Part shown: one piece after another, positions 6,681 through 31,558 of the stretch | How the letters are laid out: the number at the start of each line of letters is the position of its first letter | Numbering within the stretch: position 1 is the stretch's first letter | NCBI RefSeq assembly: GCF_058153355.1 | Contig: NZ_CM177019.1 | DNA length: 64,000 nt | Strand: one strand, 5' to 3' | Translations under genes and position numbers: made by a program | The notes under the pieces: model-generated | What the model was told of the DNA's origin: nothing | The model's input: the letters and a program-made list of their open reading frames with translations, nothing else | Databases searched by the model: none

Positions 6681-7132
6681 CTGATAAGACGCGTCAGCGT
6701 CGCATCAGTCAACCGGCTTGGGCGTTAGATGTCGGATGCGGCGTGACCGCCTTATCCGACCTATGGGGTGGAGCACTTCACAGCGGTGTAGGCCTGATAA
6801 GACGCGCCAGCGTCGCATCAGTCAACTGGCTTGGGCGTTAGATGTCGGATGCGGCGTGACCGCCTTATCCGACCTACGGGGTGGAGCACTTCACAGCGGT
6901 GTAGGCCTGATAAGACGCGCCAGCGTCGCATCAGGCAACCGGCTCGGGCATTAGATGTCGGATGCGGCGTGACCGCCTTATCCGACCTACGGGGTGGAGC
7001 ACTTCACAGCGGTGTAGGCCTGATAAGACGCGCCAGCGTCGCATCAGGCAACCGGCTTGGGCGTTAGATGTCGGATGCGGCGTGACCGCCTTATCCGACC
7101 TACGGGGTGCCACACTTCACGGCAGTTTAGCG
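6681..7132. repeat. Tandem array of four ~113-bp REP/BIME units in the mqo-eco intergenic region
   Basis: The motif ctgataagacgcg recurs at 6681, 6794, 6907 and 7020 (period 113 bp); each unit holds two inverted REP-like palindromes (ctgataagacgcgccagcgtcgcatcag and gatgcggcgtgaccgccttatccgacctac). Confidence 0.8.
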
Positions 7133-20256: not shown

Positions 20257-20350
20257 AAATCGTGCGAACTCAATACATTGCTCGATCCGCGTAGATACTG
20301 TTATGGCCTGCAAGTTTTTTTCTACCCCGGTTTCCCAGATTGCAGGCATG

Positions 20351-21577
<1,227 letters not shown>

Positions 21578-21657: not shown

Positions 21658-22302
21658 TTGTGCCCCACGTTGTTGCAGGAACAGAATGGTGGCCGCCACG
21701 CGTGAGCGGACATTGAGTTTACGCAGCAGATTGCGAATGTGTACTTTTACTGTCTGCTCGGAAATATTCAACACCGAGGCAATCTGTTTATTTGACAGTC
21801 CCTGTGCCAGCTCGTGCAGAACATCCAGCTCGCGCTCCGTCAGCACGCTGAAGGGATCTTCTTCCGCGCCAAACATTTCACGTTCACGTAAGTACTGATT
21901 GACGCGTTCGCTAAAGACTTTGCTGCCTTTCGCTCCGGCACGAATCGCTTCCAACAACACTTCCGGATCGCTGTCTTTCAACAGATAACCGTCTGCGCCT
22001 GCGTCTATCAGCGCAAACACATCGCTGGAGGCATCTGATACGGTCAGGATAATAATTTGCGCGGTAACGCCATCCCTGCGCAAGGCATTGAGGGTATCCA
22101 GGCCACTCATACCTTTCATATTGAGATCCAGCAAGATCACGTCGATATCCAGTCTATTCGCCAGATCGATAGCACTCGCGCCGTCGCCCGCTTCGGCGAC
22201 CACTTCAAAGCCAGGATCAAGCTCCAGTAACTGACGAACACCGCGTCGCATAAGTGGATGATCATCCACAATCATCACCTGAAAAGGCGTTGCTTCAGGC
22301 AT
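21655..22302 (-). CDS. narP: Nitrate/nitrite response regulator NarP (NarL/FixJ family)
   Basis: 215-aa product from internal ATG (MPEATPFQVMIVDDHPLMRRG...); receiver domain plus C-terminal LuxR-type HTH. Confidence 0.9.
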   Translation of the reverse strand: MPEATPFQVMIVDDHPLMRRGVRQLLELDPGFEVVAEAGDGASAIDLANRLDIDVILLDLNMKGMSGLDTLNALRRDGVTAQIIILTVSDASSDVFALIDAGADGYLLKDSDPEVLLEAIRAGAKGSKVFSERVNQYLREREMFGAEEDPFSVLTERELDVLHELAQGLSNKQIASVLNISEQTVKVHIRNLLRKLNVRSRVAATILFLQQRGAQ

Positions 22303-22621
22303 AGTAGTCTCCTGAGGTTTTATTAGAATCATTATGTTTGAGCGTAGCGTTGGAAACGCTACCAGGCGCGTGAATGTTACCCCATTTTATGTATGGACAT
22401 GTAGTGAAAAGTACAGCTCAGTAGTTCACCCTCGCATCATTTTCATTATAAATATGGAATTTTGCATCAACTTCCCATCAAGAAAAACAACTAAAAAATC
22501 AATCACAATACATGTGCATTTCTTTAAACAGTTTTTAAAAACTGACTCCGGGTATGGAGCTATGGGTATTTTCAGTACCCAATGCTTTTGACAGCAATTA
22601 ATTTCATAGGATGAAAGCTCA

Positions 22622-25216
22622 ATGCATCAATCTGGTTCTGTTTCTCTTTGTCGTTCCGCAATATCTGTTCTGGTGGCTACAGCGTTATATTCACCCATAG
22701 CATTGGCATCAACTGTTGAGTATGGTGAGACAGTTGATGGTGTTGTCCTGGAAAAAGATATCCAGCTGGTTTATGGGACCGCCAATAATACGAAAATCAA
22801 TCCTGGCGGAGAACAGCATATAAAAGAATTTGGTGTAAGTAATAATACTGAAATTAACGGAGGGTATCAGTACATTGAAATGAATGGCACCGCAGAATAC
22901 TCAGTATTAAATGACGGTTATCAAATTGTTCAAATGGGTGGCGCGGCAAACCAGACTACCCTCAATAATGGTGTGCTACAGGTTTATGGCGCAGCGAATG
23001 ATACTACCATTAAAGGCGGGCGCTTAATTATTGAAAAAGATGGCATTGCCATCTTCGCCGTTATCGAAAAGGGAGGACTACTGGAGGTTAAAGATGGCGG
23101 ATTGGCATTTGCGGTAGATCAAAAAGCAGGCGGTGCGATTAAAACAACCACGCGGGCCATGGAGGTATTCGGAACAAACCGTCTCGGTCAGTTTGATATC
23201 AAAGATGGGGTTGCTAACAATATGCTGTTGGAAAACGGCGGAAGTTTGCGGGTTGAAGAGAATGACTTCGCTTATAATACCACTGTGGATAGTGGTGGTT
23301 TACTGGAGGTTATGGATGGCGGGACTGCAACTGGCGTTGACAAAAAAGCAGGCGGAAAATTAATTGTTTCAACGAATGCGCTGGAAGTGAGTGGTACAAA
23401 CAGTAAAGGCCAATTTAGCATAAAAGATGGCGTGTCTAAAAATTATGAACTGGATGATGGTTCCGGGCTAATTGTTATGGAGGGCACTCAGGCAATTGAC
23501 ACTATCCTTGATGAGCATGCAACCATGCAATCGTTGGGAAGAGATACTGGTACGAGAGTGCAGGCACATGCAGTTTATGATCTTGGTCGGTCAGTGCAGA
23601 ATGGAAGCATAAAATATTCCTCAAATGCCATATCTGAAAATATGGTTATCGATAATGGTCGCGCTAATGTCTGGACTGGCACAATGGTTAACGTAACAGT
23701 CAGAGGAAATGAGGGCATTATTGATGCAATGGCGCTAGAATTAAATTTTTATACACCGGCTACATTTTTAGGTGACTTGGTGGTTTCTGATGGTGCATCT
23801 TTAAGAACGCATGGCGCAGTGGATACCAGTAAAGCAGATGTTTCTATCGAAGAGAGTTTTTGGGCTATTATTGCCGATATCAATAATATAAACCAAAACA
23901 CCCGTCTCAATTTAGCAAACCTGGTGATGTCAGACGGAACTGTCGTTATGATGGCTGAGCCAGTGACTCGTTCATCTGTGACGGCAAGTGCGGAAAATTT
24001 CACTACGTTGACCACCAATACCCTATCGGGAAACGGCAATTTTTATATGCGTACCGATATGGCTAATCATCAGAGCGATCAGCTCAACGTGACCGGTCAG
24101 GCAACAGGTGATTTCAAAATATTTGTGACGGACACGGGGGCCAGCCCGGCAGCAGGTGATAGCCTTACACTGGTAACAACGGGCGGCGGTGATGCTGCAT
24201 TTACCTTGGGCAATGCCGGAGGCGTTGTTGATATAGGTACGTATGAATATACCTTGCTGGATAATGGCAACCATAGCTGGAGTCTGGCAGAGAATCGCGC
24301 GCAAATTACCCCTTCAACCACTGATGTGCTGAATATGGCGGCAGCACAACCGCTGGTATTTGATGCAGAACTGGACACCGTGCGTGAGCGTCTTGGTAGC
24401 GTAAAAGGCGTTAATTACGATACGGCGATGTGGAGTTCGGCAATTAACACCCGCAACAACGTGACCACTGATGCGGGAGCTGGCTTTGAGCAAACATTGA
24501 CGGGGCTGACGCTCGGTATCGATAGCCATTTCTCCCGTGAAGAAAGCAGAACAATTCGCGGCTTGTTCTTTGGTTACTCTCATTCTGATATTGGTTTTGA
24601 TCGCGGCGGCAAAGGCAATATTGATAGCTACACCCTGGGGGCTTATGCCGGTTGGGAGCATCAGAACGGTGCCTATGTTGATGGGGTGGTGAAAGTTGAC
24701 CGTTTTGCCAACACCATCCATGGCAAGATGAGTAATGGGGCAACAGCGTTTGGCGATTACAATAGTAACGGCGCGGGTGCTCATGTTGAGAGCGGGTTCC
24801 GTTGGGTTGACGGATTGTGGAGTGTTAGACCCTATCTCGCCTTTACCGGCTTTACCACAGATGGTCAGGACTACACGTTATCAAACGGCATGCGCGCGGA
24901 TGTGGGAAATACCCGCATATTACGCGCTGAAGCGGGAACGGCGGTAAGCTATCACATGGACCTGCAAAACGGTACGACGCTGGAACCCTGGCTGAAAGCC
25001 GCCGTGCGTCAGGAATACGCCGATTCTAACCAGGTGAAAGTTAATGACGACGGTAAATTTAATAATGACGTGTCTGGAACCAGTGGCGTTTATCAGGCTG
25101 GGATAAGGTCATCGTTTACCCCGACGTTAAGCGGTCATTTGTCAGTCAGCTATGGCAATGGCGCGGGGGTAGAATCACCGTGGAATACCCAGGCGGGTGT
25201 GGTCTGGACGTTCTGA
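22622..25216 (+). CDS. yejO: Autotransporter (type Va) adhesin-like protein, apparently intact
   Basis: 864-aa ORF; signal peptide; repetitive Gly/Asp-rich passenger domain with an internal ~80-aa tandem duplication; C-terminal beta-barrel ending ...GVVWTF; lower GC than neighbours. Confidence 0.8.
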   Translation: MHQSGSVSLCRSAISVLVATALYSPIALASTVEYGETVDGVVLEKDIQLVYGTANNTKINPGGEQHIKEFGVSNNTEINGGYQYIEMNGTAEYSVLNDGYQIVQMGGAANQTTLNNGVLQVYGAANDTTIKGGRLIIEKDGIAIFAVIEKGGLLEVKDGGLAFAVDQKAGGAIKTTTRAMEVFGTNRLGQFDIKDGVANNMLLENGGSLRVEENDFAYNTTVDSGGLLEVMDGGTATGVDKKAGGKLIVSTNALEVSGTNSKGQFSIKDGVSKNYELDDGSGLIVMEGTQAIDTILDEHATMQSLGRDTGTRVQAHAVYDLGRSVQNGSIKYSSNAISENMVIDNGRANVWTGTMVNVTVRGNEGIIDAMALELNFYTPATFLGDLVVSDGASLRTHGAVDTSKADVSIEESFWAIIADINNINQNTRLNLANLVMSDGTVVMMAEPVTRSSVTASAENFTTLTTNTLSGNGNFYMRTDMANHQSDQLNVTGQATGDFKIFVTDTGASPAAGDSLTLVTTGGGDAAFTLGNAGGVVDIGTYEYTLLDNGNHSWSLAENRAQITPSTTDVLNMAAAQPLVFDAELDTVRERLGSVKGVNYDTAMWSSAINTRNNVTTDAGAGFEQTLTGLTLGIDSHFSREESRTIRGLFFGYSHSDIGFDRGGKGNIDSYTLGAYAGWEHQNGAYVDGVVKVDRFANTIHGKMSNGATAFGDYNSNGAGAHVESGFRWVDGLWSVRPYLAFTGFTTDGQDYTLSNGMRADVGNTRILRAEAGTAVSYHMDLQNGTTLEPWLKAAVRQEYADSNQVKVNDDGKFNNDVSGTSGVYQAGIRSSFTPTLSGHLSVSYGNGAGVESPWNTQAGVVWTF

Positions 25217-25278
25217 TAACAGAAAATAAACAGGCCGTAATGTGTCGCGGTCTGTTTATCAAATTAATCGCAGATATA

Positions 25279-25309
25279 AAAAAACCAACCGCAATAGGTT
25301 GGTTTTTCT
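25279..25309. terminator. Bidirectional intrinsic terminator between yejO and proL
   Basis: Hairpin ccaacc-gcaata-ggttgg flanked by aaaaaa upstream and ttttt downstream. Confidence 0.55.
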
Positions 25310-25319
25310 TGGGATTTTT

Positions 25320-25396
25320 GGTCGGCACGAGAGGATTTGAACCTCCGACCCCCGACACCCCATGACGGTGCGCTACCAGGCTGCGCTACGTGCCGA
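25320..25396 (-). tRNA. proL: tRNA-Pro (GGG anticodon)
   Basis: Minus strand reads CGGCACGTAGCGCAGCCTGGTAGCGCACCGTCATGGGGTGTCGGGGGTCGGAGGTTCAAATCCTCTCGTGCCGACCA: cloverleaf-compatible, GGG anticodon in a T-GGG-G context, TTCAAATCC T-loop, 3' CCA. Confidence 0.85.
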
Positions 25397-25469
25397 CTCG
25401 TGGCTGCTAATACTACCGTTTTCCACAACGAATGCAAGTAAGATATTTCGCTAACTGATTTATAATTAA

Positions 25470-27230
25470 TCAGTTAGCGATAAAACGCTTCTCGTCTGTC
25501 AGCACCTGCAATAACAAACTTAACTGTGGTTTTTCATCTTTCACTCTTTCACCACGTAAGTTGTACGTGCGGTATTTACCGTTATTGTTCAGCACTAACG
25601 TCATTTTCGGGGTGGTAATTGCCAGCGTATCGTTATCCGCAGCAGTAACCCAGTAATGACGGCGTTGGGGGTTGAACAAATCCTGACCTTGCGAATATTC
25701 GCTGGCAGGTGTGCTGACATGTAGCAGGCGTTGCATCAGCGTCGTCATCAGATCGGTATGATCGGTCAGCGCATTAATACGCTGCGCCGGCGTGCCTAGC
25801 CAGTGAATCACTAATGGTACCTGCAGATGACCGTGGGACCAGTCAAAGGTTTCTTCCTCTTCGCTCAGCGGAATACCCCGGCCGGCAGTGATAATCACCA
25901 CCGTATTGTCCAGTTTGCCAGAATCACGCAGTGCATTGAGCACGCGGTTGATCTGGTCATCGACATTGCCTGCCGCCCGGCTATATTTCCGTGCAAATGC
26001 CTGCTGATTGCTGTCGTCAATGTTAGTGCCATTGAAAGACACCCACGAGAACCAGCGGTTATCTTCTTGTGCGTAGCGGCCCAGCCAGTTGATCCACTGC
26101 GTGGCGGTCTGCTCGTCGGATTGGGTACGTACGCTCGGCATCGAGAAATCTGACAACAATGCCTGGCGATACAGCGGGCTGGTAAAGCCATCTGACGAGA
26201 ATAACCCCAGCTGATAGCCTTGCTGATTAAGCGCAGTAATTAACGCCGCAGGCGTACGGGTCGACAGAATGCCGTCCATATAGCTTGGCGAGATGCCATA
26301 GAACAGGCCAAAGATGCCGTTGTCTGTAGTGTTGCCGGAGCTCATATGGCGCGTGAACGAAATATTTTGCTCAGCAAAACCTGCCAGCGCAGGCATCTGC
26401 TTCTCGAAGCGTGAGTAGTTCAGGCCATCGACAGTAATCAACAGCACATTCTGCCCGGTGCCCATATCGCGATAGCGCAGTTCGCTTAACGGATACTGAA
26501 CGGAAACGGCGTCTGGATTGCCTTGCTCAATAAGACGGCGTTGATACTCCTGCGCATCAAGCAGACCATGCTTCTCAAGAAAACGTCGCGCCGTCATCGG
26601 GTACGAAAGCGGCAGGTTAGCGCGCTGCATGGTGATCGGGCGATAGAAGTTGGCATCGGCCCAGATATACACCACATGCGATGCAATAAAAGCGATAAAT
26701 AAGAATGCGGCCAGCGGGCGCGCGAAGCGCCGACGACGCGTCAGGCTGCGTAGCTTTTGCCAGCTCCACGTCGCAAACACCAGTTCAAGCAATAAAATAA
26801 CCGGCACGCTAATGAACATCAGCTGCCAGTCGCGCGCCATCTCATTTTCGTCTGGGTTGATAACCAACTGCCAGACGATGGGATTAAGATGGAGATGGAA
26901 ACGAGTAAAGACTTCGCTATCGATCAGTAATAGCGTCATTCCCGCCGTTGCTAAAATGACGGACAAAAACCTCATCAGCCTCTGAGAGCCGACGATAAAG
27001 GTCAGCGGGAAGAGGATCAGCAAGTAGGTGGCAAACACCAGGAAGCTGAAATGGCCGATAATGCTTACGTAGGAATAAATACGACCAGCAAGCGTTGTCG
27101 GCCAGTCGGCGATAAACAGGTAACGGCTGCCAATGACGAGCGAAAGCAGAATATTGAACAGTGCAAACCAGTGCCCCCAACTGACCATCTGGGAGACTTT
27201 TTCACGGTAGCGCTGACGATGAGTTACCAT
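25470..27230 (-). CDS. yejM: Inner membrane protein YejM/PbgA (sulfatase-like periplasmic domain)
   Basis: 586-aa ORF; five N-terminal TM helices plus a C-terminal alkaline-phosphatase-superfamily domain; synteny with yejL-yejK. Confidence 0.9.
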   Translation of the reverse strand: MVTHRQRYREKVSQMVSWGHWFALFNILLSLVIGSRYLFIADWPTTLAGRIYSYVSIIGHFSFLVFATYLLILFPLTFIVGSQRLMRFLSVILATAGMTLLLIDSEVFTRFHLHLNPIVWQLVINPDENEMARDWQLMFISVPVILLLELVFATWSWQKLRSLTRRRRFARPLAAFLFIAFIASHVVYIWADANFYRPITMQRANLPLSYPMTARRFLEKHGLLDAQEYQRRLIEQGNPDAVSVQYPLSELRYRDMGTGQNVLLITVDGLNYSRFEKQMPALAGFAEQNISFTRHMSSGNTTDNGIFGLFYGISPSYMDGILSTRTPAALITALNQQGYQLGLFSSDGFTSPLYRQALLSDFSMPSVRTQSDEQTATQWINWLGRYAQEDNRWFSWVSFNGTNIDDSNQQAFARKYSRAAGNVDDQINRVLNALRDSGKLDNTVVIITAGRGIPLSEEEETFDWSHGHLQVPLVIHWLGTPAQRINALTDHTDLMTTLMQRLLHVSTPASEYSQGQDLFNPQRRHYWVTAADNDTLAITTPKMTLVLNNNGKYRTYNLRGERVKDEKPQLSLLLQVLTDEKRFIAN

Positions 27231-28716: not shown

Positions 28717-29319
28717 TACAAGTGCGACAAGAAGTCGTCCAACATATTGTTTTGATAAATTATTTATATAAAACCAACTATTCCATTAGTTGTAGCCTAC
28801 TGAGGCAGGCAAAGCTGGTAACGGCTCTGTCTGAAGCCCTTGGGACAATGTAGCTTAGCAAATATTGCTTCAGTTAATCGTGAGAAAACCTGATCGCTAC
28901 AAGCATCATGCGGCGAGAGCGCTAGGCTGGGCGGTATGGTTAACATAGTGAACTGTCGTTAAACGTCGTAACAGAGAACGAGCCAAAGATGCTGATAGGC
29001 TTGCACCAAAAGGTAAGGGGTAAGGCTATTCCTGTTCGTAGTGGGAATACATGGACAATAACTCCCCCGGCGGATAGACAGAACCTAACCCGTTCTTTGT
29101 ATGTTGGTCGGAACTTGGTAAGCCCGAATTCTCGCCCTAGTGGCAGGGGCACCGTAAGGCAAACTGATGAGAATGCGGGTAAAGGAGGATGGAAAAAGCG
29201 AAAGCCGGACTGTAATCGTGCGGATAGAGGTTCAATATTTGCCTTAACGGGAAACCGTGCTGACTTCCATCTGGTCTTTAATTGCGAAACATCTGCGAAG
29301 GTTTCTTTGGATGACATGT

Positions 29320-30999
29320 ATGAAAATTACATCTAACAATGTAACTGCGGTCATCAACGGAAAAGGTTGGCATTCCATTAACTGGAAGAAATGCCATCAA
29401 CACGTTAAAACCATACAGACAAGAATCGCAAAGGCGGCATGTAACCAGCAATGGCGTACAGTCGGTAGATTGCAACGATTGCTGGTTCGCTCATTCAGCG
29501 CCAGAGCACTGGCGGTGAAACGAGTTACGGAAAATAGCGGGCGTAAAACCCCCGGAGTTGATGGTCAAATCTGGAGTACTCCAGAATCAAAATGGGAAGC
29601 GATATTCAAACTCAGGCGAAAAGGGTACAAGCCCCTACCGCTAAAAAGAGTTTTTATACCCAAATCTAATGGCAAGAAAAGACCATTAGGAATCCCCGTC
29701 ATGCTTGACAGGGCAATGCAGGCCCTGCATCTGCTGGGATTGGAGCCTGTATCGGAAACTAATGCAGATCACAACAGTTATGGTTTCAGACCAGCGCGAT
29801 GTACGGCTGACGCCATTCAACAGGTATGTAATATGTATAGTTCCCGGAACGCCTCGAAATGGGTTCTGGAAGGCGATATTAAAGGATGCTTTGAACACAT
29901 TAGCCACGAGTGGCTGCTTGAAAATATTCCTATGGACAAGCAAATACTCCGTAATTGGTTGAAAGCCGGGATCATCGAAAAAAGCATATTCAGCAAAACT
30001 CTCTCGGGTACACCCCAGGGAGGAATCATATCTCCAGTTCTGGCAAACATGGCCCTGGATGGACTGGAAAGACTGCTGCAAAATCGCTTTGGTCCGAAAC
30101 GCTCAAAAACATTCAGGAAACATCAGGTTCACTTCGTCCGGTATGCTGATGATTTCATCATTTCCGGAAAGTCGAAAGAACTTCTGGAGGAGAATGTTCT
30201 TCCGTTGGTGAAATCATTTCTTGCAGAAAGAGGGCTGACGTTATCCGAAGAGAAAACGGTCATCACTCACATTACTGACGGATTTGATTTCCTTGGGCAG
30301 CACGTCCGACGCTTCGGTAGAAAACTCATAATCAGACCAGCCAAGAAAAACGTTAAACAATTTCTTAGCAAGATCAGAGAGACTATTGAAGGTAACCGAA
30401 CGGTTCCTGCATGGGTGCTAATAAATCTGCTTAATCCAATCATCACCGGGTGGGCAAACTATCACCAACATGTAGCATCGGCAGAGACATTTAACTATGT
30501 CGACAACCAAATCTGGCGCAAAATCTGGCAGTGGTGCAGAAGGAGACATCCCGGCAAAGGCCGGAGATGGATCTTCCGAAAGTACCACACGACAATAAAA
30601 ATGTGTCATGGTCGATTTTATGGAGTCGATCCGGAGGGTAGGAAATATGTTCTGTCCCGGGCCAGCGACATCCATATTAATCGCTATATAAAAATAAAGG
30701 GAACGGCAAATCCATATGATCCCGAGTGGGAAACATACTTCGAAAGAAGGCTGGACTACTCATGGAAGAAATCCCAACAGGGGCAGAAAAGGATTCTCGC
30801 TATATGGAAAAGGCAAGGATCGCGCTGCCCTTTATGTGAGCAACCGATTAATCGCGATACAGGATGGAATGTTCATCATTTGCTCAAGAAATCTCTTGGC
30901 GGTAGCGATGATGTGAGCAATTTAGTCCTACTCCATCCCAACTGCCATCGACAACTACATAGTAATGACGCTGGTCTCCCACAAGGTGGAGGCTTATAA
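29320..30999 (+). CDS. Group II intron-encoded protein: reverse transcriptase / maturase / HNH endonuclease
   Basis: RT motifs (KKRPLGIPVMLDRAMQ, FVRYADDFIISG), a maturase X region, and a C-terminal HNH (CPLCEQPI...WNVHHLLKKSLGGSDDVSNLVLLHPNCHRQLH). Start codon uncertain: ATG at 29257, 29311 or 29320. Confidence 0.88.
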   Translation: MKITSNNVTAVINGKGWHSINWKKCHQHVKTIQTRIAKAACNQQWRTVGRLQRLLVRSFSARALAVKRVTENSGRKTPGVDGQIWSTPESKWEAIFKLRRKGYKPLPLKRVFIPKSNGKKRPLGIPVMLDRAMQALHLLGLEPVSETNADHNSYGFRPARCTADAIQQVCNMYSSRNASKWVLEGDIKGCFEHISHEWLLENIPMDKQILRNWLKAGIIEKSIFSKTLSGTPQGGIISPVLANMALDGLERLLQNRFGPKRSKTFRKHQVHFVRYADDFIISGKSKELLEENVLPLVKSFLAERGLTLSEEKTVITHITDGFDFLGQHVRRFGRKLIIRPAKKNVKQFLSKIRETIEGNRTVPAWVLINLLNPIITGWANYHQHVASAETFNYVDNQIWRKIWQWCRRRHPGKGRRWIFRKYHTTIKMCHGRFYGVDPEGRKYVLSRASDIHINRYIKIKGTANPYDPEWETYFERRLDYSWKKSQQGQKRILAIWKRQGSRCPLCEQPINRDTGWNVHHLLKKSLGGSDDVSNLVLLHPNCHRQLHSNDAGLPQGGGL

Positions 31000-31005
31000 A
31001 GGCTT

Positions 31006-31039
31006 GAGCGGTATGCGGGGAAACTCGCACGTACCGTTC
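31006..31039 (+). ncRNA. Group II intron domain V (catalytic hairpin)
   Basis: GAGCGGTATGCGGGGAAACTCGCACGTACCGTTC: a 34-nt hairpin with the AGC triad, 2-nt bulge and GAAA tetraloop typical of domain V, directly after the intron ORF stop. Confidence 0.75.
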
Positions 31040-31118
31040 TTAGGGGGCGGCGAGACAGTAATGAATCGCTGCTACCCGACAAAATAGCAATACCGTAATC
31101 AGGCATAATTTGCAGATA

Positions 31119-31165: not shown

Positions 31166-31558
<393 letters not shown>

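Follow-up and report, generated by a model that had tools for sequence, protein, structure and literature searches.

In the window, i.e. the whole stretch of 64,000 nucleotides of contig NZ_CM177019.1 (assembly GCF_058153355.1) analysed here, the autotransporter gene yejO lies between narP and proL/yejM. The locus comprises the following features.

22303..22621, no strand assigned: divergent narP-yejO intergenic region, AT-rich (GC 0.364), holding both promoters.
22340..25265, + strand: Escherichia-specific segment (blastn against Citrobacter) consisting of the promoter region, yejO and 49 bp with its own terminator-like hairpin.
22622..25216, + strand: yejO coding sequence (ORF, Pfam/NCBIfam domains, RefSeq naming).
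25228..25257, + strand: candidate yejO terminator, a hairpin just 3' of the stop codon (-17.8 kcal/mol, weak T-run) inside the Escherichia-specific segment.
25278..25310, no strand assigned: likely proL terminator, possibly bidirectional, a hairpin flanked by an A-run and a T-run and kept in Citrobacter.
25319..25395, - strand: proL, tRNA-Pro(GGG), with its 3' end toward yejO; an integrase target site in relatives.

The coding sequence begins with ATG, encodes 864 aa followed by a TGA stop codon and is uninterrupted; both the intact ORF and the adjacent tRNA-Pro gene reported in a preliminary description of this DNA were confirmed. A consensus scan gave no call for the hairpin at 25278..25310. 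In thousands of E. coli genomes, the RefSeq annotation of the matching stretch reads 'yejO: autotransporter YejO', and the window gene aligned with features named yejO over 100% of the query at 93.4-98.8% nt identity. Window YejO shares 97-98% aa identity with 864-aa RefSeq YejO proteins as well as with the alleles of the nearest strains, EC42405 and R32_14_1F, and 93% aa identity (93.5-94.4% nt identity) with the mainstream allele. RefSeq YejO (b2190 in K-12) has 863 aa, i.e. the window protein is one residue longer. Moreover, the gene order ccm(H)-narP-yejO-proL-yejM is conserved. On the basis of full-length identity and conserved position, we conclude that the window gene is the orthologue of E. 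coli b2190. In MG1655, this gene is a two-piece pseudogene with an IS5K insertion after nt 67; splitting of K-12 yejO by IS5K has been reported (PMC11005336), and the remark in the preliminary description that the locus is IS-disrupted in K-12 was correct.

The encoded protein is divided as follows.

22622..22708, + strand: predicted Sec signal peptide, aa 1-29 (...SPIALA/STVEYG), read by eye from the sequence.
22709..24301, + strand: passenger, aa 30-560, a right-handed beta-helix of ~18.5-aa AIDA-type rungs (Pfam AIDA and Pertactin; AF2).
24311..24400, + strand: alpha-helical linker, aa 564-593, plugging the barrel (AF2 DSSP helix H564-593).
24422..25213, + strand: translocator at the C terminus, a 12-strand beta-barrel, aa 601-864, with the ending ...VVWTF (PF03797, TIGR01414, AF2).

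Judged by eye, the N terminus has the typical n-h-c pattern with ALA/ST after residue 29; residues 1-28 have an AF2 pLDDT below 50 and are disordered in the model. Pfam matches are AIDA (twice), Pertactin and the Autotransporter beta-domain (PF03797, 155 bits, cut-off 26), and the NCBIfam match is TIGR01414 (370 bits, cut-off 16); the pertactin-like domain, aa 432-556, closes the passenger. The AF2 model (pLDDT 87.9) shows a beta-helix over residues 30-560, a helix over 564-593 and a barrel over 601-863. The barrel superimposes on those of BrkA, EspP and NalP with TM scores of 0.7-0.9 (0.8-0.9 for BrkA and EspP), while the best PDB matches of the passenger are the Ag43 structures 7KOH, 7KO9 and 4KH3, followed by TibA and pertactin. 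With a 12-strand barrel that ends in an aromatic residue, a linker and a beta-helical passenger, YejO belongs to the classical monomeric (type Va) autotransporters and, by structure, to the AIDA-I/Ag43 class. From what is known of this class, the 29-aa signal peptide would direct Sec export, BAM would insert the barrel, and the linker helix and the ~530-aa passenger would then reach the cell surface, where the passenger would fold as a beta-helix stalk, most likely serving as an adhesin or aggregation factor. The heptosylation-target repeat motif TIGR04415 was matched with 81 bits (cut-off 30); no heptosyltransferase gene (aah/tibC-like) adjoins yejO, the neighbours being narP and proL. A literature search returned nothing direct on YejO function and no reported phenotype; in the papers found, the K-12 pseudogene was used only as a neutral control.

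Within the passenger, two consecutive repeats of ~80 aa had been described. Two tandem copies are present, but with a period of 74 aa (222 nt).

23072..23293, + strand: repeat unit R1, aa 151-224, made up of four rungs (19+19+17+19 aa; in-register comparison, AF2).
23294..23515, + strand: repeat unit R2, aa 225-298, sharing 54% aa identity and 55% nt identity with R1 (in-register comparison, AF2).

Strands start at residues 153, 172, 190, 208, 227, 246, 263, 282 and 301 in the AF2 model and, because of this spacing, 74 aa correspond to four beta-helix rungs. At the DNA level, Tandem Repeats Finder detected no repeat inside yejO (positions 22000-25600 searched), and self-BLASTP of YejO returned the identity match only, so that the repeat was shown by in-register comparison instead. 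The longest in-register exact run shared by R1 and R2 is 13 nt. Thus, R1/R2 is not a high-identity DNA tandem repeat. Because an orthologue of 75% identity at the same locus has both copies, the duplication is old; dN/dS in the repeats is 0.05-0.13. In total, the comparisons indicate that R1/R2 is an ancient four-rung duplication with both copies under purifying selection.

The longest shared run coincides with the breakpoints of alleles that have a single copy.

23121..23133, + strand: 13-mer microhomology AAAAAGCAGGCGG inside R1, where the one-copy deletion alleles have their left breakpoint (junction comparison).
23343..23355, + strand: identical 13-mer AAAAAGCAGGCGG inside R2, in register and 222 nt further downstream, where these alleles have their right breakpoint (junction comparison).

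In NIPH17_0020, yejO is annotated as an intact CDS of 789 aa and lacks exactly 74 aa in frame; its deletion junction lies inside AAAGCAGGCGG, the head of which matches R1 and the tail R2. By junction counting (2855-2583), the one-copy allele is present in ~272 of the 5426 complete E. coli genomes, a frequency consistent with its presence in 2 of 40 spread rows of yejO matches. The same 74-aa deletion was found in L086 on a window-like background with ~17 nt differences from NIPH17 around the junction. From these junctions, the deletion has arisen on two or more occasions, each time at this 11-13-nt microhomology; the ~272 genomes might represent a single clone, and the independent origins shown number two. 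One of the two rests on a single draft assembly. Because a copy consists of whole rungs and the microhomologies lie in register 222 nt apart, exact in-frame loss of one module is possible: RecA-independent deletion between the 11-13-nt microhomologies would remove one 74-aa module, and the stalk would be shortened by four turns with its fold unbroken.

A three-copy allele was sought with a synthetic reciprocal junction query, which gave no match of at least 80% coverage beyond the expected alignments to R1 (1042 of 1042 matches, at 93% identity). A 935-aa protein (P0001) was considered as a carrier of a third R unit and rejected; it has a different duplication, of 72 aa, in the pertactin-like domain. 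Hence the proposal that the repeats are a substrate for expansion or contraction holds for contraction, whereas no expansion was found, and contraction proceeds via short microhomologies and not by recombination between long identical repeats. As at a contingency locus, copy number varies among strains, but high-identity DNA repeats are lacking.

The ancient duplication and its later partial loss can be weighed against two other readings of the repeat. The 74-aa periodicity could reflect the generic similarity of AIDA-type 19-aa rungs with no true duplication, given that the whole passenger is built of degenerate ~18-19-aa rungs, that the TIGR04415 and AIDA repeat models match YejO several times and that the second-best self-offset is 18 aa. 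At that offset, 24 of 74 residues are identical and no other offset exceeds this number, whereas offset 74 gives 40 of 74 identities (z = 12.6 against shuffles). Moreover, rung i of R1 pairs specifically with rung i of R2 (similarity of 14, 9, 10 and 7 on the diagonal, at most 6 off it), and residual DNA similarity occurs at exactly offset 222. The self-offset and rung-by-rung comparisons contradict generic similarity, which is hardly credible as an explanation. Equally, the one-copy allele (789/790 aa) could be ancestral and the two-copy form the product of a duplication, i.e. expansion instead of contraction; the direction is not obvious from the lengths alone, and the 72-aa tandem duplication in the P0001 record is an example of such an event. 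This order of events is contradicted by three observations and we regard it as extremely improbable: the single unit is a chimera with a head near-identical to R1 and a tail near-identical to R2, although the identity between R1 and R2 is only 55%; the divergent Escherichia orthologue has two copies; and the deletion is found in two distinct allele backgrounds.

Downstream of the repeats, window YejO differs most from other alleles.

23516..23911, + strand: passenger part that is mosaic and hypervariable, aa 299-430 (dN 0.14, dS 0.62 against K-12).

In this part, the window protein represents a divergent allele class relative to mainstream YejO; dS against K-12 is 0.62 here compared with ~0.08 in the barrel and the flanks. 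The flanking core genes of the window strain are ~3-3.5% divergent from most E. coli. For yejO as a whole, dN/dS is 0.19, and for the flanking genes 0.02-0.03. Disruptions of yejO comprise IS5K in K-12 and insertions of IS1, IS2 and IS200 in other genomes; UTI89-like genomes, among others, have large deletions together with frameshifts or stops. Remnants of 42-46% coverage are annotated as pseudogenes. In the literature, yejO is described as truncated in UPEC and absent from ST131. Part of the segment is present in 5425 of the 5426 complete genomes, a near-full-length gene in ~79%, and ~21% do not have at least 80% of the region. We conclude that yejO is fixed in E. coli yet has decayed repeatedly, through IS elements and, in UPEC/B2, through deletions. 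Variation of yejO within E. coli is a matter of decay and not of presence or absence.

On the narP side, homology to Citrobacter (L009, L011, L013 and L007; blastn) ends at 22339, and its limit toward proL is ~25266; in L009 and L011 a 118-bp spacer takes the place of the segment and proL abuts narP. Neither the 2.93-kb segment nor a YejO homologue was found beside proL (within 9 kb) in 78 Enterobacteriaceae loci outside Escherichia. Of 80 Enterobacteriaceae loci, 76 have proL linked to yejM; proL carries a phage-integrase element in E. albertii and is the site of the gtrIC prophage in S. flexneri 1c (PMC4924310). The GC and codon-usage comparison with the flanks proposed in the preliminary description gave non-uniform values, with a GC3 of 0.439 for yejO against ~0.6 for the flanks; GC3 is 0.358 for aa 1-430 and 0.53 for the barrel half, and the GC content of the first 430 codons is 0.43. 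No integrase is encoded inside the segment. The narP-side boundary was searched for an att-like direct repeat matching the 3' end of proL, and none was found; the sole match was 11 nt to the proL D-arm and probably due to chance. Of the signs of a tRNA islet, yejO therefore has adjacency to a tRNA 3' end, atypical composition and absence from sister genera, but no mobility signatures. Because the segment is Escherichia-specific and compositionally atypical, these data support that it is an old, fixed, horizontally acquired single-gene islet at the proL integration hotspot. The suggestion of a variable islet next to a tRNA is thus borne out by composition and by absence from the 78 loci as regards the islet; within E. 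coli, there is no variation in presence or absence.

The upstream region had been described as very AT-rich over 22334-22621. Its GC content is 0.368 (0.364 for the true intergenic region) against 0.514 for the window, but other intergenic regions of the window reach 0.336-0.376. Position 22334, taken as the start of the upstream region, derives from an over-extended narP ORF; narP starts at 22302 (MPEATPF...). An 85-aa ORF at 22334-22591 had no support. A sigma-70 consensus scan gave no hit upstream of yejO, with counts not above those in shuffles, and no NarP/NarL 7-2-7 box (TACYYMTNNAKRRGTA, at most 2 mismatches) was found in the intergenic region, the total in the window being at chance level. 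Published H-NS data for other strains (K-12, SE11 and SE15) flag the narP transcription unit as H-NS-bound and the narP coding region as not bound (PMC4720273 S2 Table). yejO itself is absent from that table. Binding of the unit but not of the coding region would place H-NS in the intergenic region that narP shares with yejO, in one or more of the strains K-12, SE11 and SE15; the yejO promoter region is probably H-NS-bound. Support for the H-NS silencing suggested in the preliminary description is indirect, and a literature search on yejO and H-NS returned nothing direct.

Two further readings concern the gene as a whole. The window copy might be an intact-looking silent relic en route to becoming a pseudogene, with no disabling mutation yet: inactivation has occurred independently in many lineages (IS5, IS1, IS2, IS200, large deletions), roughly a fifth of the complete genomes have lost much of the region as described above, the AT-rich promoter region is probably H-NS-bound, and the literature reports no phenotype. 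Against this, dN/dS is far below 1 both overall and in the repeats and the barrel (0.05-0.13), an Escherichia lineage that is ~10% divergent has an intact ORF at this locus, and the large majority of complete genomes keep a near-full-length copy, so that we consider a silent relic unlikely. A different history, in which yejO is an ancestral enterobacterial gene lost outside Escherichia and its low GC content results from amino-acid and repeat composition, is compatible with the lack of a flanking integrase or att-like repeat and with the near-normal GC3 of the barrel half; in addition, narP and proL are adjacent only in Citrobacter, so that informative 'empty sites' are few. This history appears still less probable, since a YejO-like gene is missing within 9 kb of proL from all 78 loci outside Escherichia, since the N-terminal passenger has a low GC3, a measure that depends little on amino-acid content, and since the AT-rich promoter region belongs to the lineage-specific segment.

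Altogether, we hold with considerable confidence that the window contains an intact type Va yejO with an ancient four-rung duplication subject to recurrent microhomology deletion, on an acquired Escherichia-specific proL islet that is decaying in some lineages. The gene is already known, and the one-copy allele is a modestly new point. In the window strain, this autotransporter gene, not studiable in K-12, is potentially functional, and the natural pair of alleles differing by four rungs offers a ready test of beta-helix length in autotransporter adhesin function. Beyond annotation, the importance is small: the analysis identifies yejO as an old insertion at the proL hotspot that is specific to Escherichia. 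As a more speculative idea, to which we give little credence, the four-rung module could be a recurrent selectable length switch by which lineages toggle between a long and a short stalk via the in-register microhomology. If so, the reach of the adhesin tip relative to O-antigen or capsule could be tuned, or antibodies evaded, and the ~5% frequency of the short form would reflect selection and not drift of one clone.

Known proL islands include the gtrIC prophage remnant in S. flexneri 1c and an integrase element in E. albertii. Like them, yejO lies on the 3' side of the tRNA gene, is atypical in composition and is restricted to a lineage; unlike them, it has no integrase and no att-like direct repeat and is fixed in the species, and it would therefore be at most a fossil of such an integration. 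Among proteins, Vag8 of Bordetella (7AKV) aligns with aa 70-861, nearly the whole of YejO, and the pertactin domain and BrkA-type barrel of Bordetella match parts of it; identity is distant and the genus a different one, and the complement-evasion and adhesion functions of these proteins are not transferable. Ag43 (Flu/Cah), AIDA-I and TibA share with YejO the type Va layout and a beta-helix of ~19-aa rungs; the Ag43 structures 7KOH, 7KO9 and 4KH3 match at E values of 1e-38 to 1e-30, and 4Q1Q is also among the best PDB matches. Ag43-type proteins are only 21-26% identical to YejO, over the helix, and the passenger of AIDA-I is much longer. YejO reaches none of the NCBIfam equivalog cut-offs for Ag43/Cah, AIDA-I and BafA (139 bits for Ag43/Cah NF033177 and 69 bits for AIDA-I NF033176, with cut-offs of 1200 in both cases) and is a member of neither the Ag43/Cah nor the AIDA-I family. 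Because of these scores, we rejected a transfer of function from Ag43 or AIDA-I. The closest known system is YejO of E. coli (b2190 in K-12), which has the same locus and architecture; the gene is split by IS5K in K-12 but intact in the window.

The yejO locus was read correctly in the preliminary description but is an ordinary one, a known gene that is intact in the window strain; all that is added, and it is minor, is a polymorphism in which an in-frame deletion of four rungs has recurred. By megablast, the region 22334-25396 matches 5425 of 5426 complete E. coli genomes, in which the matched feature is annotated as 'yejO: autotransporter YejO', followed by tRNA-Pro. The preliminary description tentatively gave yejO as IS-disrupted in K-12, which is correct: the ORF is uninterrupted in the window, whereas in MG1655 the gene (b2190) is a pseudogene in two pieces, split by IS5K after nt 67, a disruption likewise stated in PMC11005336.

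Features of the yejO locus (window positions or YejO residues)
22340-25265: lineage-specific segment, consisting of the AT-rich promoter region, yejO and its own hairpin
22622..25216, plus strand: yejO ORF, open for 864 codons
23516-23911 (aa 299-430): mosaic hypervariable passenger stretch
25319-25395, minus strand: proL, tRNA-Pro(GGG), ARAGORN and Rfam
aa 151-224: first repeat unit, R1
aa 225-298: second repeat unit, R2
two stretches of YejO: AIDA (Pfam)
aa 432-556: Pertactin domain (Pfam)
aa 603-842: Autotransporter beta-domain (Pfam)

The passenger had been described as containing two consecutive repeats of ~80 aa; the two copies are present, but their period is 74 aa (222 nt), and they agree at 40 of 74 residues. 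No other offset does as well (the runner-up self-offset, 18 aa, gives 24/74; shuffling z = 12.6). Each unit comprises four sub-units of 19, 19, 17 and 19 aa, and each sub-unit best matches its positional partner in the other copy. In the AlphaFold2 model, strands start at residues 153, 172, 190, 208, 227, 246, 263, 282 and 301, i.e. the rungs span ~18.5 aa and one repeat unit corresponds to exactly four rungs. R1 and R2 are 55% identical at the DNA level and share no in-register run longer than 13 nt, and TRF reported no tandem repeat in yejO. Both units also occur in P0077, an orthologue of 75% identity from this locus in a more distantly related Escherichia, and dN/dS inside the units is 0.05-0.13. 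The duplication is old, with both copies maintained.

In strain NIPH17_0020, yejO is a 789-aa CDS without a pseudogene flag that lacks exactly 74 aa. The deletion junction lies within AAAGCAGGCGG, an 11-mer common to R1 and R2, and the sequence matches R1 on the upstream side and R2 on the downstream side. A 50-nt junction probe, with genomes counted at ≥80% coverage, matched 2855 genomes, 2583 of which represent 93%-identity alignments to the two-copy R2; subtraction leaves the true one-copy junction in ~272 genomes (5%), in agreement with the one-copy allele in 2 of 40 evenly spaced match rows. The draft genome GCA_036602895.1 has a deletion identical to that in NIPH17_0020 on flanks of the window-type allele, with ~17 differences from NIPH17_0020 near the junction, and the deletion therefore arose at least twice at one microhomology. 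The 74-aa loss would occur by RecA-independent deletion between short direct repeats and would be tolerated since it takes out complete rungs. Of the expansion or contraction for which the repeat had been proposed as a substrate, contraction is borne out by the one-copy genomes, but expansion is not: a three-copy allele should show the reciprocal junction, which was absent, and no protein of ~938 aa was found among 301 close homologues.

Other in-frame length changes were seen in further alleles (proteins P0001, P0018, P0020 and P0022). One protein of 935 aa, from a single ENA record that may be an assembly artefact, has 72 aa of its pertactin-like domain duplicated in tandem. The others are deletions of 34 aa from the barrel, at an 'IDS' microrepeat, and of 40 aa from within R2, and a barrel duplication of 10 aa.

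The uniform GC and codon usage with the flanks that would have told against the proposal is not seen in yejO: its GC is 0.473 and its GC3 0.439 (0.358 in codons 1-430) versus a GC3 of ~0.6 in the flanking genes, and its synonymous-codon score is among the lowest in the window. In a YejM scan with one genome per species (80 loci), proL was next after yejM in 76, and no YejO-like gene was found within 9 kb outside Escherichia. In two Citrobacter loci (L009 and L011), proL is followed directly by narP and ccmH; homology to the window stops at ~25266 and picks up again at 22339, which delimits the lineage-specific segment. The proposed variable islet beside a tRNA holds as an islet, but within E. 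coli the locus varies through decay, not presence/absence. At least 80% of the yejO region is kept in 4280 complete genomes; in the remainder, remnants of 42-46% are left, with frameshift or truncation annotations, e.g. UTI89, and insertions of IS1, IS2, IS5 and IS200 were also seen. This pattern matches the literature, in which every UPEC is reported to have a truncated YejO (Wells et al. 2010, as cited in PMC3426408) and ST131 to lack it (PMC5654935).

The overall dN/dS of yejO is 0.19 versus 0.02-0.03 in yejM, narP and ccmH, so that selection on the gene is purifying but relaxed. Compared with K-12, aa 299-430 have a dS of 0.62 and a dN of 0.14, while dS is ~0.08 in the barrel and flanks, suggesting that divergent allele segments were swapped by recombination; the window-type and mainstream yejO look like two allele classes exchanged in this way. 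ccmF-ccmH and yejM-yejK are 96-97% identical to most E. coli (core ~3-3.5% divergent, complete genomes), and the flanking core genes are ~99% identical to the animal isolates EC42405 (bovine) and R32_14_1F (goat); yejO shares 93.4-94.4% identity with the mainstream allele and 98.8% with that of EC42405. These identities suggest a divergent, rarely sequenced E. coli lineage as the source of the window; yejO changes at about twice the rate of the genes beside it.

The conserved narP start is at 22302 (MPEATPF...), the ORF-list start at 22332 being 30 nt further upstream, so the intergenic region is 22303-22621 and serves two divergent genes, narP and yejO. An 85-aa ORF (22334-22591) within this divergent promoter region, which fills the upstream stretch of the preliminary description, was rejected, having neither homologue nor annotation support. 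The AT-richness noted upstream of yejO is real (GC 0.364) but not unique, as other intergenic regions in the window have a GC of 0.336-0.376. Neither a sigma-70 consensus nor a NarP box was found in the region. In S2 Table of Higashi et al. 2016 (PMC4720273), the narP transcription unit carries an H-NS-bound flag that the narP coding region lacks, which implies that H-NS binds in the shared region in at least one of the strains K-12, SE11 and SE15. This speaks indirectly for the H-NS proposal, under which yejO would be silenced.

proL, which adjoins yejO as described, is an active integration site. In E. albertii NBRC 107761, an 8.3-kb element (L020 10910-19256) encoding a tyrosine integrase, Ash, a DUF927 primase-like protein, SSB and a ProQ/FinO protein lies between proL and yejO; in several E. 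coli genomes (match rows H27-H29 and H37), the match to the window ends exactly at the proL 3' end, suggesting insertions there; and S. flexneri 1c has a gtrIC prophage remnant at proL (PMC4924310). No integrase or att repeat was found flanking yejO, which is at most a fossil of a proL integration event. An 11-nt direct match, CGCTACCAGGC, between 22357-22367 and 25371-25381 (local E-value 0.015) joins the proL D-arm region to a site that lies within the segment, 18 nt from its narP-side boundary; the match is probably due to chance because the proL part is not the tRNA 3' end.

Elsewhere in the window, IS621 (IS110 family; 1278 bp, 20295-21572; minus-strand transposase ORF 20400-21380, NCBIfam 'RNA-guided transposase') interrupts the REP-containing intergenic region between ccmH and narP. 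K-12 and EC42405 lack it at this site, where a few genomes do carry it; copies with ≥80% query coverage occur in ~1591 of 5426 genomes. A low-GC group II intron (28774-31080; Rfam D1-D4-7 at 28774-28921, domain V/VI at 31004-31080) with a plus-strand ORF (29311-30999) for a 562-aa RT/maturase/HNH protein lies between yejK and the rplY leader (31472-31497), an accessory mobile element that K-12 lacks at that position. Three tandem naRNA4/CssrE (REP/BIME-type) elements occupy a GC-rich (0.61) intergenic stretch at 6791-7100, minus strand.

YejO matches TIGR01414 and scores far under the NCBIfam equivalog cut-offs for Ag43/Cah, AIDA-I and BafA, ruling out membership of the Ag43 or AIDA-I equivalog families. 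The AlphaFold2 model (mean pLDDT 87.9) has a regular beta-helix at residues 30-560, a helix at 564-593 and a 12-strand barrel at 601-863. In its working mode, YejO is predicted to be an adhesin scaffold of the AIDA-I/Ag43 class; among solved structures, the closest are Ag43 (7KOH, 7KO9, 4KH3), Vag8 (7AKV), TibA (4Q1Q), the BrkA barrel and pertactin.
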